A stretch of 64,000 bases of DNA, taken from assembly GCA_951406725.2 (NCBI GenBank), contig OX597839.1, positions 16,058,001 through 16,122,000 of the forward strand, read 5' to 3'. Source of the DNA: Octopus vulgaris (lineage: Eukaryota). This document shows, one piece after another, positions 3,193 to 41,020 of this stretch. Made by a program: the position numbers and the translations under genes. Within the stretch, counting starts at the first letter, position 1, and the number at the start of each line of letters is the position of its first letter. The notes beneath the pieces are model-generated. The model was given only the letters and a program-made list of their open reading frames with translations, searched no databases and was not told the DNA's origin.

Positions 3193-3327
3193 ACATATAT
3201 TATATATTGTGAAATCTGATTTAGAATTGCTAAATTGAATTTTTCCCTGTAAGTTTGGAATTATATTCCCTACTACTATTATTATTATTATTATATATAT
3301 ATATGTGTATATATATATATAAATATA

Positions 3328-4226
3328 CTAGCAGTATCGCCCGGCGTTGCTCGGGTTTGTAAGGGAAATAATTATATAAGCATTTTTAGTGAGTTATAGC
3401 AAAAAAATAGCAAAAAAATGCATTAAAAATGGATAAAAAATGATGGTAATTTTTTTTTAAATTGTTGACTCATCGTAGACATTTTTAGAGAGTTACTACA
3501 CTTATATAATAGCGAAAAAATGCATTAAAATGGAAAAAATGATGGTAAATTTTTTTTTAAATCGTAGACTCATCGTAGACGCGCTAATACCCAGAAGGGC
3601 TCAATATGAATCACGACTATAAGATACCCGGTTTTGGTTAAACTGCACCGCAAAATGTGGGAGTAGTTAGGAATCTAAATCGTAGGAGACAGACACACAA
3701 CTTCACTTTTATATATAAAGATTTGTGCAACAACTAAAACATTCGGTTGTGCAAATTGTTTGCAGAGGAAACCTGCCCTGTGTGGTGGTTTTTGCCGTTT
3801 TTGTGGATCTGTTTCAGCTTTTTTAGCGATTTCTGTTTTGGCGACTTCAAGCCATGAAGTCGTTGTTCTAAAAGAACGCTGGTCTCCTTGACAACGCTTT
3901 ACGACGTTGATTTCCTTACACTCCCTTCCCCACAGCTTCACGAGGGAGGGAAGAAGGGGGAGAAGCAACACAGGTGCAGGTGTGAGCTTGGACGCCAACT
4001 CCGCCGCCAATTAAAAAAACATGCGTTAAAATGGAAAAAAATGATGTTAAATTATTTTTAAAATCGTAGACTCATCGTAGACGCACGCTAAGACCCAGAC
4101 AGGCTCGATATGAATCACGACTATAAGATACTCGAATTTGGTTAAACTGCATCGCAAAATGTGGGAGTAGTTAGGAATCTAAACGAAGGGGACAGACACT
4201 CACACAACTACAGTTTTATATATATA

Positions 4227-4229
<3 letters not shown>
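3328..4229 (-). mobile_element. Non-autonomous Helitron, tandem units
   Basis: 5' TC-TATATATAAAA, 3' hairpin cccgagcaacgccggg + CTAG; two units. Confidence 0.75.
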
Positions 4230-4281
<52 letters not shown>

Positions 4282-4303
4282 CTCGTTCGGAGATTTATTA
4301 ATG

Positions 4304-4355
<52 letters not shown>

Positions 4356-4571
4356 TTAAAATCTAATTTTAAAGTCTCTTTAAGAGGTGATTGCAGTAGT
4401 TGTATTCGCAAGTGATGTTTGTAGCCACTTCAACATGGCTGTTCCATTTAAACGGTATTTACTGTAATTTTTTAACCCCAAGGACATCTCCTTTAGCTGG
4501 TTAACGATGCACAGCTGCATCAGATATATTGTGATCAAGGGAATGAATCCCTACCACTTTCTAGCAACAGG

Positions 4572-4624
4572 ACCAGCATACCAGTCTTGTTTTGGGTTAT
4601 TTCTACCTCTCTTCAGTACTGGAC
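4572..4624 (-). ncRNA. Type I hammerhead motif (degenerate, GAAA>AAAA)
   Basis: ccagta-CTGAAGA-gaggtagaaataaccc-aaaa-caagactgg-TA-tgctgg. Confidence 0.5.
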
Positions 4625-4874
4625 ACCTTGTCTGCTAGAGATGGCAGTAGCTCACCTCTGCTCACAATATATATAAATTCAAGTAGCACACAGCCACTGA
4701 GCCATGCTGAAGTGGCTATGAACATTGCTTGCTTATACAACTACTGTGATCATCTCTTAGAGAGATTTTAGGACCAGCTTTTTAGCTTGTTGCAAAATCA
4801 GGGACTGTGTGTTGCCTGAATTTATAGGTATTGTGAGTGGAGGCGAGCTGCTGCTATCTCTAGCAGATGAGGTG

Positions 4875-4927
4875 TCTAGTACTGAAGAGAGGCAGAAATA
4901 GCCTGAAACCAGACTGGTATCCTGGTC
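4875..4927 (+). ncRNA. Type I hammerhead motif (degenerate)
   Basis: ctagta-CTGAAGA-gaggc agaaata gcct-GAAA-ccagactgg-TA-tcctgg; palindromic stem III. Confidence 0.62.
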
Positions 4928-7900
4928 CCATCACATTTGTTTCCTTGATCGCAATATATCAGATGCAGTTGTACATCCTTAACCAGCTAGAGATGTTCTC
5001 TTGGGGTTTAAGTGCTAAAAGGTCAAAGTACTTTGAAAAATTTATAATTTTTGGTCTCTTTTGTCCAGTATCCATATTATTATCTGGTATCTCTGAATTT
5101 AATCTAAAAGGTAATTGTTTATTTTTTGCTCATCATTTTTCCCTAATGATTTTGTTCCAAACAAGGCTTGAGGCTACTGTAGTGCATGGAACTACAAAGA
5201 AGTAAAAGAAAGGGCCTACAAATTCAGAAGACGTCAATTGACAGAAACCCTAAAAAGACTGAATATTATATCTGACAGGAAAACAACACAATGGCATTGG
5301 ATTCTAGAGAGCTGCAGCTCAAAGTAAAAAGCTATTAGAAAAAAAAACAAAAACTTATGATTAACAGGAAGCTTGAAAGAGAAATGATGTGCCCAGGAAG
5401 AGAAGCAGGTGAGATGTTTAGAAGGGTTTGATTGAGGGTACTAGACAAGAAAATTTGTGAAAGCAATGACTAAGGAAACATGTATAAGAAAGATACAACA
5501 AAGAAAAATGTCAATGATGAGCAAAAGACTCCAATCTAGTAGAAAGAAAAGGACCCACCATATTGAAAATTTGATTCTGATTTCAATCAAGCAAGTTAAG
5601 ACACTCAAAGGAGGAACCAGTCTGAAGATGACAGCAATATTCAATGCAAGGTTGAATGGGGGCCTTATAGAGATACAAGATACTTTCAGGCATAAGGAGT
5701 CTGTGAGCAAGGAAGAGGAATCCTTCGCTGTGTGGCACCTTGAGCAAGCGTCCTCTGCTATAAACCCTAGGCCAACAAATGCCTTGTGAGTGGATTTAGT
5801 AGACATAAATTGTGTAGAAGCCTGTTGTATGTGTGTGTGTGCGGTGTTTTTCTACCTCCACTTCTTGCTTGACAACTGGTGTTGGTTTGTTTACATCACT
5901 GTAGCTTAACAGTTCAACAAAAGAAACAAAGAGAATGAGAGGCAGACTTTAAAAAAAATACCAGGGTCAAACTGTTCAACTGAAATTTTTCAAGGTGGTG
6001 CCCCAGCATGGCCACAGTTCAATGACTGAAACAAGTAAAATATAAAAAAATACATGCAGTATTCCATCTCCATTAGTGACATAAACGAACTGAAATTCAG
6101 TGAGTTGTTGATTAAAATTTCCCCAATTAATTTTACATGTCCTTGCATATTAAAACAATTATAAAAATTTAATTTAAATTAAGGATGATTGGGGATAATT
6201 AGTTAATCTTTAGTATAATCTTAAACAAGATTATTTAACTGGAAATAAACAGGATTGAAGAAGAAAGAGGAGGAGGAAGAGGAAAAGAAGAGAAGAAATA
6301 TTATTTTTGGCACCCGTGCAAGTGGAGCGCTAAGAGCACCATCTGAGCATGATCGTTGCCAGAGCAGCTAACTGGCTTCTATGACGGTGGCACATAAAAG
6401 CACCCACTACACTCTTGCAGTGGTTGGCGTTAGGAAGGGCATCCAGCTGTAGAAACTCTGCCGGATCAAGATTGGGAGCCTGGTGCAGCCATCTGGTTCG
6501 CCAGTCCTCAGTCAAATCGTTCAACCCATGCTAGTATGGAAAGCGAACGTTAAACGACGATGATGATGATGATGATGAAATAGCTAAAAATTTTTCAGAC
6601 ATGACAATTTCTTTCAAATAGATTTCAAAAATTTAATATATAGTATGACCTAAATACCCCATCCTCACCACCACCAACATTTTCCACCACCATCATTACC
6701 ACTTAAAGAAACAAATGGACAAAAAAAAATTGTTTGATATTGTTCGTTTTCTTCGTCTCATACACACACGCACACATACACACTCATATATAGATTACTG
6801 ATATATAGATTTATGTATATATAGATTTTAGATGTTCTGATGAACAATTATGGAGACACAGGCCAAGTGTTAAGCTCTGGAAAGCAATGACAATAGAGTG
6901 GGGTCACCTTTTATAAAATGATTTTTGTGTCTGACAGGTTTTTATTATTAATGTAATGGATTCAAAATTTCGGATTTGACACTCCAATACACACACACAT
7001 ACATACTTACATATATACATACATACTTATATACATACACACATACACATACATATATATACACTCATATATACACATACATATATACATACATACACAC
7101 ACATACATGCATACATACACATACATACATACATACATACATACATACATGCATACACACATACAGATGTATGTATGTATAAAAATTTATAAAACAAAAT
7201 GGAAATTACATGTCGAAATGTGTTAGTGTATACCGAACTTATTTCTACATATATTCTGCATACACTAATAAATTTCCAGATGTTTATCCAGTAAAAGGAG
7301 TAAATCTGTTATAAGATGGCATATGGTAGCCAATGACTGTATAAGAGCTTTGAAATCACGTTGAGCTTATTAACACCTAGATGACATTAAATAAATGCAT
7401 GTGTGGGTGGACTAGTGGTTAGAGTGTTGCATTCAATACTGCAAAATTGTGGTTTCAATTTCCAGACTGGCATTGCATTGTATTCTTGAACCAAACACTT
7501 TATTTCATGTTGCGCTTAATCCCCTCAGCTATAAATTGATAACCCTGCAATGGACTGGTATTCTGGTTAGGATTAATGTTGGTCTACTTGCCATTCAAAG
7601 GCTACAATAATGTGAGGAAGTGCATTGTGATTAGTGGTGTATAACAACATCCAACAGTATGGTTGATACAGAGAAAAATATATATATCACACACATAGAA
7701 GAGTTTACTCTTTTACTTGTTTCAGTCATTTGACGGTGGCCATGCTGGAGCACCGCCTTTAGTCAAGCAAATCGACCCCCAGGACTTATTCTTTGTAAGC
7801 CTAGTACTTATTCTATCACTCTCTTATGCTGAACCACTAAGTTACTGGGACGTAAACACACCAGCATCGGTTGTCAAGCGATGTTAGGAGGACAAACACA

Positions 7901-10161: not shown

Positions 10162-10350
10162 TTAAGTAGGTGAATGAATTATCCTAGCATGGAAAATTCG
10201 TTTAAGCGATACCTGGGTAGCAAATTCACGTCAGAAAACACGGTTGCAGCGACCTGTCAAGGGTAGAAACTCCGGGTTCTCGTGTGGAAATTTCTGTGTT
10301 TTTTATATGAATAAATGAAAGAATGGAGTCGAACAAAGATTTTAACAAAA

Positions 10351-10448
10351 TTCCTTTACACTCGAAACATGCTTCGAAGACGGCATACTTTTAATTCCGA
10401 AGGAATAAAGGGTGCATTATGCCATCTTCTCATCAGGAAAGATAAGGA
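10351..10448 (-). ncRNA. Type I hammerhead ribozyme motif in 3' pLTR (degenerate stem III)
   Basis: Reverse-complement copy: CTGATGA, the same long stem II, GAAG-catgtttc. Confidence 0.72.
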
Positions 10449-10999
10449 GCCTCTTTCAGCCACAAGACGAACAAAAGTTTTTGGTGATTGCCTACATGGT
10501 GACCACAGTGAAAATGAGTGTTTTTTTAAAATAATCCGTTATAAGCAATGACGTCAAAAATGGGTAGAAGGAGTATTAAAATAGGTAGGGGACACTATGT
10601 ATGCTGTATGTATGGGGATGTGCAGGTGTGTGCTTGTGATAATGAGTGCGAGTTTTTGTGTATGTGTATGAGTGCGGGTATATAACTGCATTTGTGTCTG
10701 TGTATGTGTGATTGTGCGTGTGAGGGAGACAAACGTCAAAAATACTTAACAGTAAGGTGTAAAATTTGTGTCTGTGTGTTTGATTGTGTGTGTTATAGAG
10801 AGAGAGAGGGAGATATATAAACTTACGTCAAAGATATTTAGTAGTAATGGAATAAATAACGGAGCAGAAAGAAAGTTCAAAGGCATAGGAAAGAATTTGT
10901 CTATGGCAGTGGTGTTGATGGAAAGCCAATTGTTAAAACTAAAGTGGTTATCTATATTATTTATATGAGTGGAAAGTGTGTTTCTGCCAATGCTTACAC

Positions 11000-12997
11000 T
11001 TATACAATTTTTTCTATGAGTGTGTTTACTAGGGCGAAAAGGATATAGAAGAGTTCAGAATTACAAATGTTACAAAATTTTTTGCCCTTGTCAAAAGGAA
11101 ATGATATAGACAATATAAACCAATCCAACTTGAAAGTTATATTATTGTCTTTAAGACGCCAAACTAATTTACTCAGTCCTGTACTATGTCGTTTTTTCTT
11201 ATCTCGGAAAGTCGAATAATGATTGGAAATTCTCTTGGATAACTGAGTTGTCACACCTATATAGAAGAAGACATCGGTACCGGAAGAAATTCTACACTGG
11301 TAAATGGAATTCTTAATTTTGGAATTACTGGACAAAAATTTTAATCTATTAGGGTTTTCCTCAGAGATCGAGACGGAGTTTTTATTGTTATGATTGTTGC
11401 TTTTATTACTACTAGCGGTAACAACTACACTATTTCTATTATTATTAATTGTACTACAACCAGCAATATCCCCTACAATAGTACCGTTGTTGTTGTTACC
11501 ATCAACACTACCGCTGTTATTAACCCGACTAATACTATTATTAATACTATCATTGCTAACACTAACGCTGCTACGAATGCTGTTACTATCAATACTATTT
11601 CTATTATTGTGATTGTATGATGGGTTGGAATTGGAAAGATTAGTGCTGGAACTCCCAGGTGAAGAATTTTTATTTAGCAGCTTGTTATTATGGGAAGAAA
11701 TAATTTGCGAAAGATTCCTAGTGTTAGAGAATGCTATTCTTACCTTGTGTGAATTGATAATGAAATGATATCTAGAATTACTGGGAAAGTTCCTAGCAAT
11801 GGCTTCACGGAACTGTAAGGGAAGGTTCGATTTGATTTGTTTTCCGAAAGGTATTACAAACCAGATACAGTTTTTTGTGGACTTTGAATTGTTCCTAGTG
11901 TTATTTGTGACAGTAAGGGGAAAATTTCTGTGTTGGAAATTTGGAGTTGGGTGGCGCTTACCTCCCCTAGTCTGTAAAGGATTTATTTTATGTACAGGGG
12001 TGTTGGCACTATTAGAATTGGAATCATTATTTTTATTACTACTATTATGAGTAATTTTCCTATCTTGAGAAGCATATGTTGGTTTAGAATGAGCTGGGTC
12101 GATGTATGATACTTTTTCCTTATAACCGGCTTTTGACAAGGCGGTGTTATAGAATTCCGCTTTTTGGTTAAAGATGTCGACATTAGCAGATAATTTTGAT
12201 AGTCTCAGAGATATGTTTTTAACTAAATTATCGGTAATTGGCTTGGCATGATTACTGAAAATGCTGATATATTTTAGATTAGTAGAAGGTTTATGATAAG
12301 GGAAGTATGAGTTATTCTGCAGATTGAGGGTAATGTCTAAGAAGTTGGCTTTAGTTAACTCATTGTCAAAAACTATGCTCAAGCCCATTCTACTAAAAAA
12401 CCTAACTAATCTGATCTTAACATTCTGTATTTTTTGGTTCGAAGCATTCTGGAAGTAAAGTAGACAATCGTCGCGATAAAGACCTCCACAGATGTCCGGG
12501 AATTGGTCGGCCATTTCACAGAGGATATAAATTCCGACCAAATCGGCTATCTGGGCGCTGTCTGTACTTCCCATTAGTACATCAAATGCGTTAGGGGTGT
12601 CTTTACGGACCCACAACTTGCTATCGAACTGTATGAAAGATTTTCTAGCTACCAATATCACATCAATTTCATCTCTGGAGAGGCCTGCCTTATTGTGTGC
12701 GTGCCATAGGGCCTTATTAAGTACACTAGTGTTGATTGAAGGGTAGAAACTAGATATATCGAATTGTATAAATTTTGTTTTGGCCTTATCGGTAATAGAA
12801 GTAAACCACTCTACGACTTGAGCAGAGTTGGACCATAAGCTGAGTTTTAACTTATTAATTAATATAGGTATATACTTATCTAATATGTATTTACTAAGGG
12901 TACCGATGTCTGAACTGGAAGGGCATATGAGCCGCAATGCTGGGTTGGTATGAAAGTTCTGTTTGTGGTCCTTTAAGATGAATCTTGGTTGTCTGGG
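11000..12997 (-). CDS. PLE reverse transcriptase + GIY-YIG endonuclease ORF (5'-truncated; frame open upstream of the annotated start)
   Basis: LKDHK...RLICP, FDISSFYPSI, LMGS..SAQIAD, GLYRDDCL RT motifs; SIYQC...YIGVT...KR..NH and C-terminal CNIC..E GIY-YIG motifs; no stop in 645+ codons. Confidence 0.92.
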   Translation of the reverse strand, partial: PRQPRFILKDHKQNFHTNPALRLICPSSSDIGTLSKYILDKYIPILINKLKLSLWSNSAQVVEWFTSITDKAKTKFIQFDISSFYPSINTSVLNKALWHAHNKAGLSRDEIDVILVARKSFIQFDSKLWVRKDTPNAFDVLMGSTDSAQIADLVGIYILCEMADQFPDICGGLYRDDCLLYFQNASNQKIQNVKIRLVRFFSRMGLSIVFDNELTKANFLDITLNLQNNSYFPYHKPSTNLKYISIFSNHAKPITDNLVKNISLRLSKLSANVDIFNQKAEFYNTALSKAGYKEKVSYIDPAHSKPTYASQDRKITHNSSNKNNDSNSNSANTPVHKINPLQTRGGKRHPTPNFQHRNFPLTVTNNTRNNSKSTKNCIWFVIPFGKQIKSNLPLQFREAIARNFPSNSRYHFIINSHKVRIAFSNTRNLSQIISSHNNKLLNKNSSPGSSSTNLSNSNPSYNHNNRNSIDSNSIRSSVSVSNDSINNSISRVNNSGSVDGNNNNGTIVGDIAGCSTINNNRNSVVVTASSNKSNNHNNKNSVSISEENPNRLKFLSSNSKIKNSIYQCRISSGTDVFFYIGVTTQLSKRISNHYSTFRDKKKRHSTGLSKLVWRLKDNNITFKLDWFILSISFPFDKGKKFCNICNSELFYILFALVNTLIEKIV

Positions 12998-13021
12998 GTT
13001 CGTCTTGTGGCAGAAAGAGGC

Positions 13022-13119
13022 TCCTTATCTTTCCTGATGAGAAGATGGCATAATGCACCCTTTATTCCTTCGGAATTAAAAGTATGCCGTCTTCGAAACA
13101 TGTGCCGAGAGTAAAGGAA
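13022..13119 (+). ncRNA. Type I hammerhead ribozyme motif in inverted pLTR (triplet mutated GUC>GCC)
   Basis: ctttc-CTGATGA-gaagatggcata...tatgccgtcttc-GAAA-catgtgcc-gagag; stems I, II and III visible. Confidence 0.78.
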
Positions 13120-13288
13120 TTTTGTTAAAATCTACATTCGACTCCATTCTTTCATTTATTCATATATATATATATATATATATAGGGAAGGAAAAATTGT
13201 AAAAAGGCAGAATGCTAAATTGAAGGAAAATTTTTATGAAAATGGGTGTATGGAAAATTTTGAAAAATTGATAAAATATATATATATT

Positions 13289-13330
13289 AATTCAAACCAG
13301 TTTTCGTCATAATGTGACTTTTCAAGAATT
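13289..13330 (-). ncRNA. Minimal type I hammerhead, U3-A8 core variant (inverted copy)
   Basis: aattc-TTGAAAA-gtca catta tgac-GAAA-actggtt-t-gaatt; stems I (5 bp), II (4 bp) and III intact. Confidence 0.68.
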
Positions 13331-13915
13331 GTAAAGAAAAAATTTTTTTTTAAATGTGAGGAGGGGAAAAAAAGAAAATTACATTGTTTTTTGCAAAAAA
13401 ATAATAATAATTATATACAAAAATTAAAAAATAGGTACTCCGATACATTGTAAAGACTTTGTGTATCTTGAGCTTAATGATAGTTCACCAAAAAATTACC
13501 TTGAAGTATTGAGATCCAATGGGATTAAATCCATGTGTTGTTTAATTTAATTAAGGGTGTCTCTTAAGTGAATGGCAAAACAGGAAGTAGTAGTCCAGTT
13601 CCTGTGTTGTGAATAAGGGGAGACAACTCTATGGGTTTTAAGCTCTTCAATTTGTGTTTATCAATTTTTTGTAATAAAGGGTGTTCATAAACCTTAAATT
13701 ATAAAATTATCCTTTTAGCTTCATTTGCATTATCTTTTTTTTATATAATTGTTTGCTAACTTAACATTCAGATTTTAACACTTTATTTATATTGTTTTCT
13801 AATTATATAAATTACACTGAAAACCACCCAACCCAACAACACACACAACCCCAAAAATATCGAAGCATACACCACAATCATACAAAACCTCACTCTACTG
13901 TCAACAGACCCAAAA

Positions 13916-14440
13916 ATGAAAAACATTATAAATACACACAAAATCCTCAAATGTAAAAGGCAACACAAATCTTTAAAAAAACTCTTGACAAATGCCAAAC
14001 TTCACATACCACATCCACCCCCAGCGGTTAAAAAATGTGCACGCCCAAACTGTGGCACCTGCCCCTTCCTACTTGAAGGCTCTGAATTTATCTTCAAACA
14101 AGGAATGAAGTTTAAAATCAAGACCAACTTCTCCTGTTCCTCCGAGAACCTTATCTACGTTCTCACGTGCGCCGGTTGCCAACATAATTATGTTGGACAA
14201 ACGAGTCTCCCGTTACGTAAAAGAGTAGCGGTGCATAAAGAACAAATAAATCTCCCGGAATACCGGCAAATCCCACTGAGTGACAACATAGACACATGCA
14301 CTAAAGACAAAAATCCCAAATTCTACATATTCCCTTTCTACCAATGTAAAGACGGAATCACCACACATGAGAGAATTAACAAGGAGAATCTCTTTATTGA
14401 AAAATTCAAAACGCATCTTAATATGCAAATTCCTCGTTGA
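13916..14440 (+). CDS. PLE C-terminal linker + GIY-YIG endonuclease fragment
   Basis: KRQ..LKKLL, Cx4CxxC linker (CARPNCGTC), NLIYVLTCAGC..YVGQT..LRKR..H, R..KE..FI; upstream in-frame THNPKN. Confidence 0.9.
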   Translation: MKNIINTHKILKCKRQHKSLKKLLTNAKLHIPHPPPAVKKCARPNCGTCPFLLEGSEFIFKQGMKFKIKTNFSCSSENLIYVLTCAGCQHNYVGQTSLPLRKRVAVHKEQINLPEYRQIPLSDNIDTCTKDKNPKFYIFPFYQCKDGITTHERINKENLFIEKFKTHLNMQIPR

Positions 14441-15103
14441 TCATACTTCTTTTTTCTACCTCATTCTTCATGGATGTACTAACACAAACATATAAGGATA
14501 CCATGCAGTCATCACTTCACGCTAAAACTTATATTCTTTAAATATCATTATTAATATTGTTGTTATTACTATTATTTTTATTATATATGACATAACAATC
14601 TGAAATGTAATTATAAATTGGTTTATACAAATTTATATAATTAGAAAACAATAAATATAAAGTGTTAAAATCTGAATGTTGTTAGCAAACAATTATATAA
14701 AAAAAGATAATGCAAATGAAGCTAAAAGGATAATTTTATAATTTAAGGTTTATTAACACCCTTTATTATAAAAAATTGATAAACACAAATTGAAGAGGTT
14801 AAAACCCATAGAGTTGTCTCCCCTTATTCACAACACAGGAACTGGACTTCTACTTCCTGTTTTGCCATTCACTTAAGAGACACCCTTAATTAAATTAAAC
14901 AACACGTGGATTTAATCCCATTGGATCTCAATACTTCAAGGTAATTTTTTGGTGAACTATCATTAAACTCAAGATACACAAAGACTTTACAATGTATCGG
15001 AGTACCTATTTAAAAATTTTTGTATATATTATTTTTTTGCAAAAAACAATATAATTTTCTTTTTTCCCCCTCCTCACATTTAAAAAAAAAATTTTTTCTT
15101 TAC

Positions 15104-15145
15104 AATTCTTGAAAAGTCACATTATGATGAAAACCAGTTTGAATT
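15104..15145 (+). ncRNA. Minimal type I hammerhead, U3-A8 core variant
   Basis: aattc-TTGAAAA-gtca catta tgat-GAAA-accagtt-t-gaatt. Confidence 0.62.
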
Positions 15146-15273
15146 AATATATATATATTTTATCAATTTTTTAAAATTTTCCATACACCCGTCTTCATTA
15201 AAATTTTCCTTCAATTTAGCATTCTGCCATTTTACAATTTTTCCTTCCCTATCATTTCACCACGTGCGGTCAA

Positions 15274-16857
15274 CATTGTTTTTGTCAGAAAAGTAGGTAT
15301 AAGTTTTTATTAAAGTTGTTTTATATTCTATAATTTTCACAGACAATAAATACAATATTAATTGGTATTGTCTGAGATTTTGGTGCAATTTGAGTGGGTA
15401 ATACAAAAGTTATGGATGATATAGCGATTTACTGCAAAGCCCATTGCGGCCAAAATGATCAGAACGATTGAAAAAATAACAAAATAATCAAAAATGACAG
15501 AGAATGCTGGAATTATTTCATATTTAGTGTGAACCCCTTTAGCTTCAATCAAACTTTGACATCTTCAACTGCATGAGGAAATTAAATTTCTTGCTGGGTG
15601 ATCTTATTCCATTCTTCCTGAAGGGCATTCCATAATTGCTTGGTTGTTTTAGGATTTCTGGCTTTCGAACGTTCTCCTAGAATATTCCACACATTTTCAA
15701 TAGGATTGAGATCTGGGCTTTGAGCAGGCCAATCCATAACAATAACCTTTTCAGCCTTGAGGAAGTTCATGACCACCTTAGCCTTGTGACATGGGGCATT
15801 GTCCTGCATGAATATGGGCGGTCGCTTAGTTGAATTTTTCAGCATAGGGAAGACATGATCTTTTACAAGTTATTTATAAACTCCTGCATTTACCTTTCCG
15901 TGTAATCACACCAAAGGGCCCACACCATCTCCAGATATCATCCCCCAAACCATGATACTTCTTCCACCGAATTTAACACTAGTCTTAAGGCATTTTAGGT
16001 GACAATTTTTCACCTACTTTTCGACGAATAGCAGACATATTTGAGCCAAATAACATAGACTTAGATTCATCACTGAAATGCCATTTTTCTTGAGACTGCA
16101 ACACATGTTCGGGTGCAAAAGTTAAAACGACACTTTTTATTCTTGAAGCTGATCAGTGGCTTCACTGCAGGTGCTCTTGCTTGTAGGTCATGTTCAACTA
16201 AACGACGAGACAGTTTTTCGAGATAAAGTTTTCTTCAGTACAATGCTCATTTCCCGAGAAACAGCAGCAGCAGTTTTAAATCTATCCTTTTTAACCAACT
16301 TTACCATAGCACAATCTTCTCTCTTGGTCGTTTTTCTTGGCCTACCTGTAGACTTTCTTGCTTCACACGAACCACAATCATCGTAGACCTTAAGAATACC
16401 ATGAATAACACTTTTTGACTTGTTAACAATCTTTGCAATAGACCCAATACTTAAATTATCCTTCTTTCGAAGCTTAATAATCTGCTGACGAATTGGTAAC
16501 GGAGTAAGTGGCATTATATTAACAAAGTACACTGCAGATATGCTTACGGCGTGTTTCGTAAATGAACCGTCACATAAACAAATTCAAAACATTAGAGTTC
16601 GCTGGTTAAATATACTAAAACATAGAGTAGAAGCAACCGTTCTGATCATTTTGGCTGCCATGGGTTTTGCAGTAAATCGATAAATCATCCATAGCTTTTG
16701 TATTATCCTCTCAAATTATACCAAAATCTCAGACAATAACAAATAATATCGTATTTATTGTCTGTGAAAATTATAGAATATAAAACAACTTTGATAAAAA
16801 CTTATACCTACTTTTCTGACGAAAACAATGCCATTCTGAACATTTTGGCCACAACTG
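15274..16857 (-). mobile_element. Tc1-family DNA transposon with ~220-bp IR/DR terminal repeats
   Basis: TIRs at 15274-15466 and 16638-16857; right end CAGTTGTGGCC followed by TA; outer part of left TIR missing. Confidence 0.9.
15582..16532 (-). pseudogene. Tc1 transposase pseudogene (DD34E), frameshifted
   Basis: HTH/GRPRK, FSDESK, MVWG, FMQDNAPCH, SPDLNPIENVW spread over broken frames; 34 aa between D and E. Confidence 0.92.
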
Positions 16858-16903
16858 TATATATATATATGTGTATATGTATATATATATATATATGTGT
16901 GTG

Positions 16904-21670: not shown

Positions 21671-22597
21671 AAATACATACACACATATGTGTGTATGTAT
21701 ATCAGCAAATATGTGCATGTCTACTAAACTTATTAATTCACATGCACCCATACTACTCAGCTAATACCTTTTTTTCATTCCCAATGAGTCACGTAGCATT
21801 TGGTGCTCATCACCAGATTCTATAACATTTAAAAGATGCTAGATAAATCTCCTGGATAAGAAGCAGCTGATTCAACGGTAGCTTTTTCATATGAGGAACT
21901 GAAACTTAGTACTGCAACTTAACAAATCATTTATCAAACCTGTGAATTGTTCTTACCCTGAGCTACCTAATTAAAATCAAATTAACTGAGAATTAAATTT
22001 CAAGGTCACATACATTACCCTTAGCCAAGGACATGATATGAACCATGATATGAATCAGATGGTTACTTGTTATTCTATCCGCCTGGCTGTTTATTTTACT
22101 TCTTACATTATCTCTTACTCTCTATTTACAGACTTCTAAAATTCAATTCATATTTATACATCCATTTGTCTGTCCTCTTAATTACCACCTCACTTGTCTC
22201 TGATTACACATAGATACAAAAGGTACAAGATAGAAAAATAGTATTAAATTATTCAGTTATAATATCCTTACATTTGTTTCAGTGGCAGTTACACAATGAT
22301 TACATAAGATTAACCATCTGCAGATACCACCTCTTCAGTAGTTTTACAAAAAAACTTATCAAGCATCTGTTCCTGAGTATAATGGAACCTATGGAGTTCT
22401 GTCACAATAGTTAAAAGTCACACATTTTAAAACTTACTCTATAAACACACATATATATCCATAACATATATACGGAAAAAAAAAAATTAACAAAATAAGA
22501 AAACAAAAAAGAGGAAAATGAAAATCATTTTGTTCCTATTTTATGGAGATTTAACATGTTTCAGCTGCAATAATTATTGATTTTAATCATTTATAAA

Positions 22598-23604
22598 ATG
22601 CGTTTTGTGAATTCTTCAAATAACTTATCGGTTCCCCATCGAAATGATTATCCTGCAAGAACCACCCATTACCCCTCATCTCCAGAGAGCCACTGGAATA
22701 ATGATAACAGCAGTAGCAGTAACATCACCTCACTTGACTTCTACTGGGAACACAGATTTGCTGTTATTATCAATCTTTATATGCCACCTATTTTGATCGT
22801 TCTCGGGAGTATCTGTAACTGTCTGGTTGTCAAAGTAATGGTTGGGCGTTGGTTCTCATCTGTTTCAACATCGGTCTACCTGATAGCTGGGACAATAGCT
22901 GACACAGCAAGCCTGTTAATAGTATTGCCAGCTCATTGGTTTTATGTGAATTTTCCTGCTTCAATTCACAGGTCTGAAGATTCTCATTTCATGTGTAAGT
23001 TCTTCAATTTTTTTGGATGGGGTGGCAGTGACTATGCTATTATTCTCACTGTTGCTATGACAGTCGATAAGGCAATTGCTATTCTATTTCCGATGAAAGC
23101 CCAAACATTATGTACAACAAAACGTGCAAAAAGAGTTATATTCGTGCTTGTTTGGATTATCATTCTCAAAGAGAGCCACTTCTTGTTCACCTCGAACATT
23201 GTTCCGCTGGGTCGCACAGAACAGCTGTGTACTGTTGACATTCCAAACGAGACCTACCGTATCTTCTACGAGAAACTGTGGCCCACCATTCACAATTTTT
23301 TCCTTTTCCTATCCTTCACTATTATCATCATCAGCAACATCATTATCATCAGTAAGATCAAAAAGTCACGGGATTTCAAAAAGTTCTCCGACTCAATGCG
23401 AATATCTCAATCTGCGGATCGAACCAAGGGCCCACAAATCACTATCATGTTGCTTATAGAATCCTTCACCCTTGTCATACTCACACTACCATTTTCTTTA
23501 TATGTCACCGTTCTTAACACAGAACTAAAGCAGCACGACCTTCACATGAAATCCATCCACCAGCTTGTCTTTGCCATTGTTTTCTATCTCCTCTACGTTA
23601 ACAG
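22598..23604 (+). CDS. Rhodopsin-class (class A) GPCR, FMRFamide/sex-peptide-receptor-like, coding exon 1 (TM1 to start of TM7)
   Basis: N-terminus with N-glycosylation sequons, hydrophobic TM segments, GSICN (TM1), IAD (TM2), ECL1 CKFF, AMTVDKAIAI..P (TM3), CT.KRA; ends ag|gtaagt. Confidence 0.92.
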
Positions 23605-25545
23605 GTAAGTAACTTTTCCATATGTGTACACACACGCACACACATATCCATCAGGGCCATATATTCCAGGTGTGCTAGGTGTGCGCTGCACACCCATCAA
23701 AAATGGCAAATTCATTATAAATATTAATCTTACTCGTTAATTTAATCAGAAATCATAATAGAAAACTTTTGTAATATCCTTGCTTGAAATTGGGTGGCAT
23801 TGGGTGTGGCAGCACACCCTATATAACAACCACCATATACCACTGGTATTCATGCACATACATTGTCATCAATCCCTGGACATTGCTGTCTCAAGTCCTA
23901 GGACACTTAGGGTCAGTTATCTGGTTTCTATGGCAATGGGGAAATGACAAGGGACCGGTGGAGAGGTGGTGATTTGCTGTACTTGATAAGATGCCTCAGT
24001 CTAAGTAAAATCGCTGTCTTCCACACATACAAGTGCTTTTTCAGGTGCTGGGGCCACTTAAAAAGCACCCATACTAGTGCTGCATTAACACACCCATGCT
24101 GGTGGCACATAAAAAGTACCCAGCATACTCTGTTAAGTGGTTGGCATTAGGAAAGGCATCCAGCTGTAGAAACCATGCCACAACAAACAGTTGGAGTCTG
24201 GACAGCTCCACGTCAAACCATCAAACCCATGTCAGCATGGAAAGTGGACATCAAACAATGATAAGTAGTGATCAAAATCACAACATTCCCCTGGCTGGGA
24301 TGCTAGTCATTGCAGAACATACATATATATTTTAAGCTGATTAATCACACATCAATTCCACAGTGCTTCCACAGCTTATAAGAAAAAAATAATGACTTTG
24401 GCAGTTTTGAAGTGAATATTCAGTTGTTTAGTCAATTGAATTATGTATTCTTTAAATTAAGCATATAAGTGGTTGAGTATTCCAAAGACAGATGTACCTT
24501 AATATAATTCTCAAGTACAGCTTGTGATTAAGCTGGATCTCTGAATTACAAGAAGAATCCAGCTGATAGGTTTCTTCATAGTTTCTGCCTCCCATTTCAC
24601 TGTCTGAGGTTATAGTAAAAGGACACTTGCTCCAAATGCTATGCAGAGAGATTGAACTCATGGGCACATGATTGTGAAGCAAACTCCCTTAACCATTCTG
24701 CCATGCTACTTTTGCCACTTATAGCACGGAGTTATATCACCCAGCTGCACTTATCTACAAGTAGTTTGGATTCCAATATATTGTTTTGGATATGGACATG
24801 TGTTGCCAGTGGTAGGATATGAACCATCAACTTCTTGCTTTCTTCACCTGTACCGTAGCCACCCGACTACTTCACATTCATGCACATAAAAACTTATACC
24901 TGAAGAAAAAAAGCTCCACACACAATATACTGTTTGTTGTTGGTATATAAGACTCCCCACAACATCAAACCAGGTCCTACGTGCTAAGATGGGCCTTTAC
25001 CCCACACCTGAGCAAAAAAAAAAAAACTAGTTGCATATACAGCTCAACAGTTATGATTGCAGACAAACTAATGGACACAATTGGCAGCATCTTTTTCTAC
25101 ATGTGTTGTTCATTACCACTTCACTGAGAATCTGGCAGAGATGACTTTAACCCAGCCCCACCATAACAGGAATATGATGTGACAGGGTTAAAACGGGTTT
25201 AGTATGTCAAGAAAAGAGACAACTCAAGACTGTCCTTTCTCATCAGTTCTACATCAAGCAGTAGATTTATAAACTGTTTAGTGCCTCAGAGAGCAGATAA
25301 ACACACCTAACATTGTCTTTTTCATAGTAACAACTACATAAAATTCAGTGTCTAGAGGGGAGTGTATAGTTACCTTTCATTAACAACTCTTAAACCAAAC
25401 AGAACAGGTTATCTTAACACATTAACCATCACATGTACCACAAATGGTTCACTGCAAACTATACACAACTGCCATATGTACCACTGGTGGTACATTTTCA
25501 TAATTTGAGAAAAAAACCCTGATTTTGTATCTTTTTTCTAAACAG

Positions 25546-37092: not shown

Positions 37093-37758
37093 CTGGTGGG
37101 TAAAGAAAATAAAGTAAAATAAGCAAAAAACCTGGAAAGAACAAGTGGAAGTTATTTTTTGAAGATTAAAAAGAGAAATAAAATGGGAACATTTTATTTA
37201 AAACTAGGCCAATCTAGCCCATGAATCACAAGGCTTTTGTAGCAACAGATGTTTGGGGTTTTTTTTTTAGAATATCTTTCTAGTTCCAGAAGGGGCCATG
37301 CCCAAAGTCCATGCAATCTATATAACTGATGAGGTTTGTAAGGTAGATCACTTTTGTCAACTATAATTTATCATTATCATCATCATCATCGTTTAACATC
37401 TGCTTTGCATGCTGGCTTGGGTTGGCTGGTTTGACTGAGGACTGGTGAGTCAGAGGCTGCACCAGGCTCAATCTGATCTGGCAAAGTTTCTACAGTTGGA
37501 TGCCCTTCCTAATGCCAACCACTCCAAGAGTGTAGTGGGTGATTTTACATGCCACCGGCACGAGGGCCAGTCAGGCAGTTCTAGCATGCTATGACTACTG
37601 TGTGCCCTGGCATGCTACGACTACCATGTAAATTGTACAAAATATGCATATACACACACATATATACGTATATCTAATGATGGAGTCACCACTTATAAAA
37701 ATTTTACATCAAGAGGCATCTCATAAATGATTGAATGAAGAGCAGCTATACATACATA

Positions 37759-38655
37759 TCTTTAAATATAAAAGTGAAGTTGTGTGTCTGTCTCCTACGA
37801 TTTAGATTCCTAACTACTCCCACATTTTGCGGTGCAGTTTAACCAAATTCGGATATCTTATAGTCGTGATTCATATCGAGCCCGTCTGAGTATTAGCGCG
37901 CGTCTACGATTTTAAAAATAATTTAACATCATTTTTTATTCCATTTTAATGCATAATTTTTCCTGTGTCGATGGCGGCAGAGTTGCCGTCCATGGTCACA
38001 CCTGCACCTGTTTGCTTCTCCCCCTTCTTCCCTCCCTCGTGAAGCTGTGGGGAAAGGAGTGTAAGGAAATCAACGTCGTAAAGCGTTGTCAAGGAGACCA
38101 GCGTTCTTTTAGAACAACGACTTCATGGCTTGAAGACACCAAAACAGAAATGGCTAAGAAAGCCCGAATTGGCATCTATAAGGGAAGTAACTCTTTAAAA
38201 ATGCTTATATAGTTATTTCCCTTACAAACCCGAGCAACGCTGGGCAATACTGCTAGTCTTTATATATAAAAGTGAAGCTGTGTGTCTGTCTCCTCCTACG
38301 ATCTAGATTCCTAACTACTCCTACATTTTGCGGTGCAGTGTAACCAAAAGCGGGTATCTTATAGTCGTGATTCATATCAAGCCCTTCTGGGTATTAGCGC
38401 GCGTCTACGATGAGTCTACAATTTAAAAAAAAGTTTACCATCTTTTTTTCCCATTTTTAATGCATTTTTTTGCTATTATATAAGGGAAGTAACTCTCTAA
38501 AAATGAATTATTAAATTTCAGAACGTAAAAAGCTACAGTAACACCCCCCCTTTGTGGTTAGCCATGTTGAGATGACTATTATACTTTACATCTCTAAAAA
38601 TGCTTATATAGTTATTTCCCTTACAAACCCGAGCAACGCCGGGCGATACTGCTAG
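37759..38655 (+). mobile_element. Non-autonomous Helitron, two head-to-tail units
   Basis: Each unit ends cccgagcaacgc(c/t)gggc.atactgCTAG; junction CTAG|TC at ~38257. Confidence 0.8.
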
Positions 38656-39061
38656 TTGAATATAAATATAGAAGCAACAAAGAATATGTAAATAAGACAT
38701 TTAACAGTATATCTGAAAGTAAATACAGCTAGAATATATATACGTATCTACTATCTATATATCATCATCATCATCATTTAATATCCATTTTCCATGGTGT
38801 CATGGGTTAGACAGTTTGATTGAAGATAAGCTGGAGAGCTGCACCAGGCTCCAGTCATCCGTTTTGGCTTTGTTTCTGTTGCTGGATGCCCTTCCTAACA
38901 GCAACAACTCTATAGAGTGTACCAGGTGTCTTATGTGTCACCGGCACAGGTGCTTTTTACCTGTCATCAGCACTGGCTATGACCACAATTTCCCTTAGCT
39001 TGACATGTCTTCTCATGCACAGCAACACAGACACACATAAAAAGCAATTCTTCTTGCTAAC

Positions 39062-39239: not shown

Positions 39240-39739
39240 CTGTGAAAAGAGATAAAAAAAAACAAAGAAAAGAAACAAGTTTTACTGAGGGGGATATTTA
39301 TTTAGGGAATCACTGCTGTTGTTGATTACATCAGGTCAGACCTGATTTACAAGAACTATTCTTTTACTCTTTTACTCGCTTTAGTCATTTGGCTGCGGCC
39401 ATGCTGGAGCACAGCCTTAAGTCGAAGAAATCGACCCCAGGACTTATTCTTTGTAAGCCTAGTACTTATTCTATCGGACAATATTGCCGAAGTGCTAAGT
39501 TACGGGGACGTAAACACACCAGCATCGGTTGTCAAGCGATGTTGGGGGGACAAACACAAACACACACACAACGGGCTTCTTTCAGTTTCCGTCTACCAAA
39601 TCCACTCACAAGGCTTTGGTCGGCCCGAAGCTATAGTACAAGACACTTGCCCAAGGTGCTACACAGTGGGAATGAACCCAGAACCATGTGGTTCGTAAGC
39701 AAGCTACTTACCACACAGCCACTCCTGTGCCTATACATA

Positions 39740-40112
39740 TCTTTATATATATAAAAGTAAGGTTGTGTGTCTGTCTACTCTGATTTAGATTCCTAACTAC
39801 TCCCACATTTTGTGGTGCAGTTTAACCAAAACCGTATAGTCGTGATTCATATCGAGCCCTTCTGGGTATTAGCGCGCGTCTACGATGAGTCTACGATTTA
39901 AAAAATAATTTACCATCATTTTTTCCATTTTAATGCATATTTTTTTAAAGGGAAGTAACTCTCTAAAAATGTCTACGATGAGTCAACGATTTAAAAAAAA
40001 TTTACCATCATATTTTTTCCATTTTTAATGCATTTTTTTGCTATTTCTTGGCTATAACTCTCTAAAAATGCTTTATAGTTATTTCCCTTACAAACCCGAG
40101 CGATACTGCTAG
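39740..40112 (+). mobile_element. Non-autonomous Helitron (same family)
   Basis: A|TC...CTAG|T ends; shares sequence with 37759-38655. Confidence 0.75.
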
Positions 40113-41020
40113 TATATATATATACGTCAGGCTTCTTTCAGTTTCTGTCTACCAAATTCACTCACAAGGCTTTGGTCAGCCTGTGGCTATAGTAGAAGAT
40201 ACTTTCCCAAGGTGCCACACAGTGGGAATGAACCCAGAACCATGTGGTTGGTAAGCAAGCTACTTACCACACAGCCACTCCTGCGCCTATGATCGAAAGT
40301 GTTCCAAGATCATCCTGTTTTCTTACTTTTACTTCATCCTTTATTAATGTCTCAAGACTGTAAATGCCAGATGCTTATATTTCTTAAGACAGTAGGGTGT
40401 GATTTGATGTAGGTTTAGTAGCTACTTCTAGTGTTTGTCTTTTTATAAGCCCTATGTCAGTCTTGGGTGAGGAGACCGACAATCGAAGGCAATGCAGCTA
40501 ACACCATACCATCTTATTTTTTGTTAAATATAAGTTATCTTGGATTACCTTGTTACCAAAGTAACACAGGAAGACAAAATTCTTGGTGTCTCTGCTTGTA
40601 TCAGAATCTATTAGGATGATTATATATGTGTCTATTTAGGGATAAACCGCTAGGTGGATAACCATACACTAGAAGAAGATCACATACGATCTAACTACAA
40701 AGAAAAATGTTCTCCAGAGAAAATTCAGCAAACACCAGAACATAAGCGGGCAAGACAGATGAAAGTTATATAAAAATCAAGAATAGAAAACCGTCATGCT
40801 TTTTGAGAGGATATCTATGAGGACTTTGATGTGTCCTTTCCTTTCTTGAGATGATAGGGTGTGATGAGGAAGGTTTGGCTGTTTCTTCTAGCAGATTGAA
40901 TAACCACACAGGGGTTACATGTTGGCTCTTACAATATAGTGTCAGCACAGTAATGTCAGAAGTCACTCATTAACTAGTTTTTAATTAGCAACACTGAAGA
41001 GTATCAGAAGAGATGTTTAC

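Follow-up and report, generated by a model that had tools for sequence, protein, structure and literature searches.

An old inverted pair of permuted hammerhead units in Octopus vulgaris, likely a non-LTR retrozyme insertion

INTRODUCTION

In a 64 kb stretch of Octopus vulgaris DNA (64,000 nt; hereafter the window, whose numbering is used throughout), two copies of one short unit with a predicted hammerhead ribozyme stand back to back, and each copy begins at a different point of the unit. What kind of element leaves such a locus, and from what template could it have been copied? A first-pass annotation had described inverted, circularly permuted ~350-nt units and had taken them for a non-autonomous, retrozyme-like element, mobilised by a Penelope-like element (PLE) and copied from a circular or multimeric template.

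Two known systems bear on this question. Among the metazoan non-LTR retrozymes, the repeats of Mytilus galloprovincialis are ~350-390 nt long and produce circular RNA (Cervera and de la Pena 2020, PMC7229834, in its accessible text). The mobilisation of retrozymes by PLEs is proposed in the accessible parts of PMC7229834, PMC7761336 and bioRxiv 10.64898/2026.07.22.740005; in the last of these, Li, Clavereau and Pollet (2026) treat retrozymes as non-autonomous PLE derivatives, with co-occurrence and pLTR homology, mainly in vertebrates, as the evidence. For the PLEs themselves, the accessible portion of Craig et al. (2021, PMC8557442) describes an inverted 5'-truncated copy as typical and (TA)n as a preferred target.

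RESULTS

Two arms of one unit are joined 5'-to-5'

A repeat search of the window finds three inverted arm pairs (4570-4700/4798-4928, 4472-4548/4935-5011 and 4354-4440/4700-4786), and the pairing is also seen by nhmmer and by blastn (E 2.5e-74 and 3e-16); across the 64 kb, neither program finds a copy of the unit besides the two arms. Read in the hammerhead sense, the order of the blocks is X-Y-L-Z in arm 1 (4700→4354) and Z-w-X-Y in arm 2 (4700→5011), and the arms are 79–83% identical (176 of 211 aligned positions in XY and 69 of 87 in Z), which bears out the inverted and circularly permuted arrangement first annotated. The arms differ by 42 transitions and 11 transversions, plus indels, a divergence of ~18%. 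The closed unit measures ~358 nt; at 347 and 312 nt, each arm falls short of a whole unit. The features of the locus are collected in Table 1.

Table 1. Features of the hammerhead locus, in window positions.
Feature	Position	Strand	Remarks
(TA)n microsatellite	4217..4353		meets arm 1 exactly at 4354; likely the target that primed the 3' end of arm 1
Arm 1, X-Y-L-Z, 347 nt, 3' end outward	4354..4700	-	from the inverted-pair alignment
Block Z of arm 1, with a second copy in arm 2	4354..4440	-	69/87 identical to 4700-4786
Connector L (31 nt) between Y and Z, here in arm 1 only; family sequence	4441..4471	-	depth of bin 4447-4492, loose ends, joint 5005->4700
Decayed type I hammerhead of arm 1	4573..4622	-	predicted to be inactive, with G12A (4593) and a mismatch in stem III (4588)
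Arm 2, Z-w-X-Y, 312 nt, 3' end outward	4700..5011	+	without a 15-nt piece of Y
Connector w (11 nt) between Z and X, here in arm 2 only; at other loci too	4787..4797	+	joints 4681->4363, 4683->4381, 4700->4358
Type I hammerhead of arm 2, intact core	4876..4925	+	stem II has a bulged A and stem III is palindromic; the triplet is GUA, with cleavage predicted after 4919
Right flank, outside the element	5012..5136		single-locus depth: bins 5045-5136 at 18, 41 and 3.8 in X1, X3 and X7

The edges of the element lie at 4354 and ~5011. The arms are joined 5'-to-5' at 4700, where they have one base in common and no spacer, and both 3' ends face outward, at unit positions ~229 and 347 and hence ~118 nt apart. 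The junction is genuine and no assembly artefact, because one contig of the public run X3 crosses it, covering 4664-4898 with 3 differences. Across the junction (4693-4716), the start of X in arm 1 and the start of Z in arm 2 share a 7-nt inverted match, which could have aided the meeting of two cDNAs or could partly be a product of decay. Of the two outer ends, the left one alone adjoins (TA)n; the right one, at ~5011, stands without it and shows neither poly(A) nor a simple-repeat tail. A search for target-site duplications of 5-19 nt at the insertion, two-letter strings being excluded, found none.

The unit belongs to a many-copy family and closes on itself

Family data came from contigs of four public runs, aligned to the stretch at 80% likeness, with X1, X3 and X7 giving depths. 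The fourth run, X12, may be an RNA run, and the 94 contigs of it that were aligned speak neither for nor against expression or circular forms. Overall, the stretch is partly present in 14 of 24 public runs, which carry four organism codes, and half or more of its words are present in 8 of them. Compared with the flank (5045-5136), depth in X1, X3 and X7 is 193-719 times as high in the bins of Y, Z, L and the end of Z with w, and 208-271 times as high in the L bin (4447-4492). Summed contig depth is no copy number and such ratios are only a pointer; what they point to is hundreds of family copies.

Both connectors recur away from this locus. Among the 12 listed of 38 joints with letters between the joined blocks, three run from Z through w to X at other loci and one runs from Y through L to Z at another locus. 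Since both junctions are found elsewhere, the unit closes on itself, at 338-358 nt in other genomic copies; in particular, the listed joints imply unit periods of 339, 338, 358 and 341 nt. Further, a joint going back 163 nt is present in X1, X3 and X7. Among the 24 loose ends listed out of 1420, all six at the start of Z and all four at 4481, when read by eye, are short L-like connectors to the end of Y. In X3, two joints have the same depth (50.1), and for this reason they probably lie on a single 890-nt contig of ~1.5 units. Consecutive units with complete hammerheads are not found at this locus; elsewhere, the joints suggest that individual contigs, covered in part, hold more than a unit each.

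A type I hammerhead is predicted in both arms, with an intact core in arm 2

A descriptor of the intact type I core matches one locus in the window (arm 2, C3 at 4882) and none in 30 of 30 shuffled windows; when one mismatch in GAAA is allowed, it matches two loci, one in each arm, versus a mean of 0.17 per shuffled window. The arm 1 hammerhead carries G12A and a broken stem III palindrome, and that of arm 2 carries U at 11.1 and one mismatch in stem I. A type I hammerhead is present, as first annotated, but the motif as written there occurs in neither arm and is a composite, whose stem I (CCAGUA/UGCUGG) comes from arm 1 and whose GAAA and palindromic stem III come from arm 2. Rfam gives no hammerhead match in the arms at the gathering score, nor at E up to 10, and the hammerhead motifs have 0 matches in viral, metagenome and prokaryote collections.

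The majority letters of the family contigs, taken from the top 40 of 658 differences, give G12 at depths of 1333/1702 (X1), 3086/3994 (X3) and 287/392 (X7), and they also restore the stem III palindrome (4588), stem II (4597 and 4605) and stem I (4877 and 4921). The family majority keeps the hammerhead core and its stems. By comparison of the two arms, C11.1-G12 was probably an ancestral CpG; arm 1 now shows CA here and arm 2 shows TG, as two products of CpG decay would.

Across both arms, standard pairs occupy 26 of 28 pair cells, with one compensatory C-G/U-A pair between the arms; a covariation test on two sequences has no power (251 of 500 shuffles score as high). According to folding calculations, neither arm has the hammerhead as its minimum-energy fold, which is lower by 9-10 kcal/mol. 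Stem III of arm 2 could form a weak hairpin as a monomer (4 pairs and a 3-nt loop, -1.2 kcal/mol) or a self-duplex (-13.5 kcal/mol). Circular folding of the arms as they stand, compared with 100 shuffles, is not informative, with z at -2.6 (arm 1) and -0.4 (arm 2). The predicted cleavage site is unit position 122, and both arms run across it.

The arms share a subfamily and a long decay

To compare the arms with the family majority, 28 of the same top 40 differences were used, 3 in L and 9 beyond 5137 being left out; two of the 28 have no partner and two are the same site, leaving 25 distinct sites. Nineteen of these are private to one arm, five are shared by both arms against the majority (three of them transversions) and one is three-lettered. 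Because those five sites are shared, three by transversion, both arms appear to descend from one subfamily, followed by long decay.

These sites also bear on whether the arms arrived together. Two separate insertions of one family, or one insertion later rearranged, would make the inverted contact accidental. The private sites, the ~18% divergence and the indels count against a single insertion event and fit separate insertions too, the compensatory pair suggests different templates, and the outer ends do not coincide. Yet the arms abut at 4700 with their one common base and without a spacer, the 64 kb hold no other copies, and the five shared sites set both arms apart from the majority; as for rearrangement, a simple inversion within an array does not explain why the 87-nt Z block is present twice. 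An accidental contact is accordingly judged quite unlikely.

The unit is non-coding and its flank is not part of a longer element

All six frames are interrupted by stops across 4340-5830, and the GC content of the unit is 0.40 and 0.43 in the two arms. Block Z, read as the end of an ORF, shows nothing recognisable by eye, and no reverse transcriptase (RT) or GIY-YIG ORF was found attached to the unit at this locus. Translations of 5131-5783 match no family (best Pfam E 0.025 for three frames, and 0 hits for two single-frame searches), with frameshifts weakening these searches. The first-pass statement that there is no PLE-type ORF holds, as the six frames are interrupted and the downstream frames are without relatives.

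The idea that 5012-5727 holds an intron and the first part of the ORF of a PLE, downstream of a pLTR, was rejected, since the flank lies at single-locus depth and 5137-5720 is a separate repeat of lower depth, in whose frames no relative was found. This purine-rich repeat (5137-5727) reaches up to ~40-50 times the flank depth, and no protein relative of it was found.

More generally, an autonomous PLE could have the unit as its pseudo-LTR; the locus would then be a PLE insertion cut short at its 5' end, and the ORF would have been lost or left uncopied. In the accessible text of Cervera and de la Pena (2014, PMC4209133), the type I hammerheads of PLE pLTRs have a helix III that is small and palindromic and a helix II with bulged bases; PLE insertions typically include inverted truncated copies (PMC8557442, accessible part); and the 24 loose ends listed of 1420 leave room for rare ORF-bearing copies. 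Against this, the loose ends that are listed link Y to Z through a short connector, the flank behind Y has the depth of a single locus, and the translations of 5131-5783 match no family. We consider a pLTR origin very unlikely.

Comparison with PLEs, including two in the window

The locus resembles EN+ PLEs, as far as they are described in the accessible parts of PMC8557442 and PMC4209133, in its 5'-to-5' inverted geometry and its type I hammerhead with a palindromic helix III, and possibly in a (TA)n target, the tract being at the left end only. Unlike EN+ PLEs, the octopus unit has no RT or GIY-YIG ORF, and its outer ends are ~118 nt apart, whereas PLE ends coincide apart from a 30-40 nt tail (PMC8557442, same part). 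Its hammerhead has a full 6-pair stem I and a 4-pair stem III, where the PLE hammerheads covered in that portion of PMC4209133 are of minimal form. The octopus unit is not an autonomous PLE.

The window contains two PLE-like insertions. The first (10304-13166, minus strand) has a 674-aa stop-free frame (11000-13024) with an RT-like and a weak GIY-YIG match, its nearest named match being from Argonauta hians; on its 5' side, its 3' end is repeated in inverted form over 169 nt (95% identical), next to (TA)n. The second (13182-15252) consists of the end of a GIY-YIG frame (13811-14440, Pfam E 4.6e-5) and ~810 nt of 3' region; in front of these, its own 3' end is likewise repeated in inverted form, over 633 nt (95% identical), adjoining the same (TA)n tract as the first. 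No hammerhead core was found in the second insertion. Both insertions are younger than the hammerhead arms and share with them the polarity and the inverted geometry beside (TA)n; their outer ends coincide.

DISCUSSION

The best explanation is probably that the locus stems from an old insertion, by now in partial decay, of a non-coding ~358-nt Octopus hammerhead repeat with many copies, likely a non-LTR retrozyme and likely inserted by a PLE. The non-autonomous, retrozyme-like character first proposed stands, the unit being non-coding, hammerhead-bearing, retrozyme-sized and self-closing, while its mobilisation by a PLE is circumstantial, with the geometry and the TA target speaking for it and no partner identified. 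Two observations count against the PLE picture: the outer ends are ~118 nt apart on the unit, compared with coinciding ends in the two local PLE-like insertions, and the 64 kb window holds no autonomous partner that shares sequence with the unit.

The likely course of events can be outlined as follows. Head-to-tail copies would be transcribed, and the hammerhead would cut the multimers into monomers, possibly to be closed into circles by a host ligase. Both strands of AT-rich DNA would be nicked by a PLE protein, which brings a GIY-YIG nuclease along with its reverse transcriptase; two cDNAs would be primed at two places on a template spanning the cleavage site, either an uncleaved multimer or a ligated circle, and their truncated ends would be linked to each other at 4700. 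Neutral decay would have followed, including the loss of CpG at C11.1-G12 in both arms. In the accessible text of Frangieh et al. (2024, PMC11167929), both strands of AT-rich DNA are cut and extended in vitro by a PLE protein, which starts inside the RNA and has uncleaved RNA as its dominant substrate. By analogy with the PLE insertions in the accessible part of PMC8557442, the inversion itself would be an ordinary PLE footprint and no sign of circular RNA.

Because both arms cross unit position 122, the template was not a cleaved linear monomer, which leaves the uncleaved multimer or the ligated circle. To this extent the circular or multimeric template of the first-pass annotation is retained, without the circle itself, since an uncleaved multimer gives the same permutation. 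Arms of just under one unit with different end points fit a circle; the preference for uncleaved RNA in vitro, carried over by analogy, would fit a multimer; and the unequal outer ends might likewise result from sequence lost later at the right end. The narrower proposal that a PLE reverse transcriptase copied one 358-nt ligated circular retrozyme RNA, with both target strands primed at different points and each cDNA running just under one turn (347 and 312 nt) and over the cleavage site before they joined 5'-to-5', is in our estimate rather unlikely. If it were true, a family-wide map of arms in octopus would be genomic proof of a circular RNA template and of a PLE mobiliser. Arm end points across the hundreds of apparent copies could test the circle versus the uncleaved multimer, which a single decayed locus does not settle.

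Twin priming is a LINE mechanism that also yields inversions. A retrozyme-like unit mobilised by a LINE (RTE, CR1 or Dong-R4) could have been inverted in this way, and the 87-nt overlap between the 3' end of arm 1 and the 5' start of arm 2 is what twin priming could produce if the template measured 587 nt or more. Moreover, RTE, CR1 and Dong-R4 are abundant in octopus (PMC8967140), and LINEs are named among the possible mobilisers in the accessible text of PMC7229834. On the other side stand the lack of a poly(A) or simple-repeat tail at 5011 and of a target-site duplication, the likely (TA)n target, and the geometry shared with the local PLE-like insertions, and we give LINE mobilisation very little credence.

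Returning to the preferred reading, a PLE-inserted non-LTR retrozyme, the unit has sequence-level features by which retrozymes are recognised: a type I hammerhead, a size within ~150-450 nt, GC under 50%, closure and no coding capacity. It is like the retrozymes of Mytilus galloprovincialis, as they appear in the accessible text on the mussel, in its mollusc host, unit size, type I hammerhead, GC of 40-43%, lack of an ORF, head-to-tail closure and many copies. It differs from them in its cephalopod host and in its two sub-unit arms, inverted and without a direct tandem; further, cleavage and circular RNA are features of the mussel repeats, whereas the octopus unit is known from sequence alone. 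In common with the retrozymes in the accessible text of Li et al. (bioRxiv 10.64898/2026.07.22.740005), there are dispersed monomer-like copies beside what may be tandems, and PLE mobilisation is proposed; in contrast to the octopus case, their sample, as described in that text, includes no mollusc and their analysis no inverted insertions. The locus lies outside what the same text defines as active, namely two consecutive complete hammerheads.

The octopus family is probably a new family of a known kind, judging from its sequence, since repeats of this kind and of equal size have been reported from a mollusc before (PMC7229834, accessible text). No cephalopod retrozyme was found in the literature searched, which covered few subscription papers; the supplements of PMC7229834 and 10.64898/2026.07.22.740005 may list one. 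With it, the animal retrozymes, which are predicted to give rise to small circular RNAs, would gain a probable family from a cephalopod. Moreover, a retrozyme-type unit with a PLE-style inverted footprint is evidence for PLE mobilisation that is independent of co-occurrence and homology.

Other features of the window

The inverted repeats at 15274-16830 were considered as a third PLE and rejected, being the ends of a DNA transposon. This decayed element (15274-16858), with terminal inverted repeats of ~200 nt and a broken transposase on the minus strand, is probably Tc1/mariner-like, judging from its motifs. A repeat with internal duplications (3310-4240), which has copies at 37747-38670 and 39735-40124 and ends TA-rich just left of arm 1, presumably resembles Helentron-associated DINE-1-like elements. 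A rhodopsin-family GPCR frame at 22574-23608, which points to Octopus sinensis or a very near species as the source of the window, is 100% identical to a protein of the former named thyrotropin-releasing hormone receptor-like.
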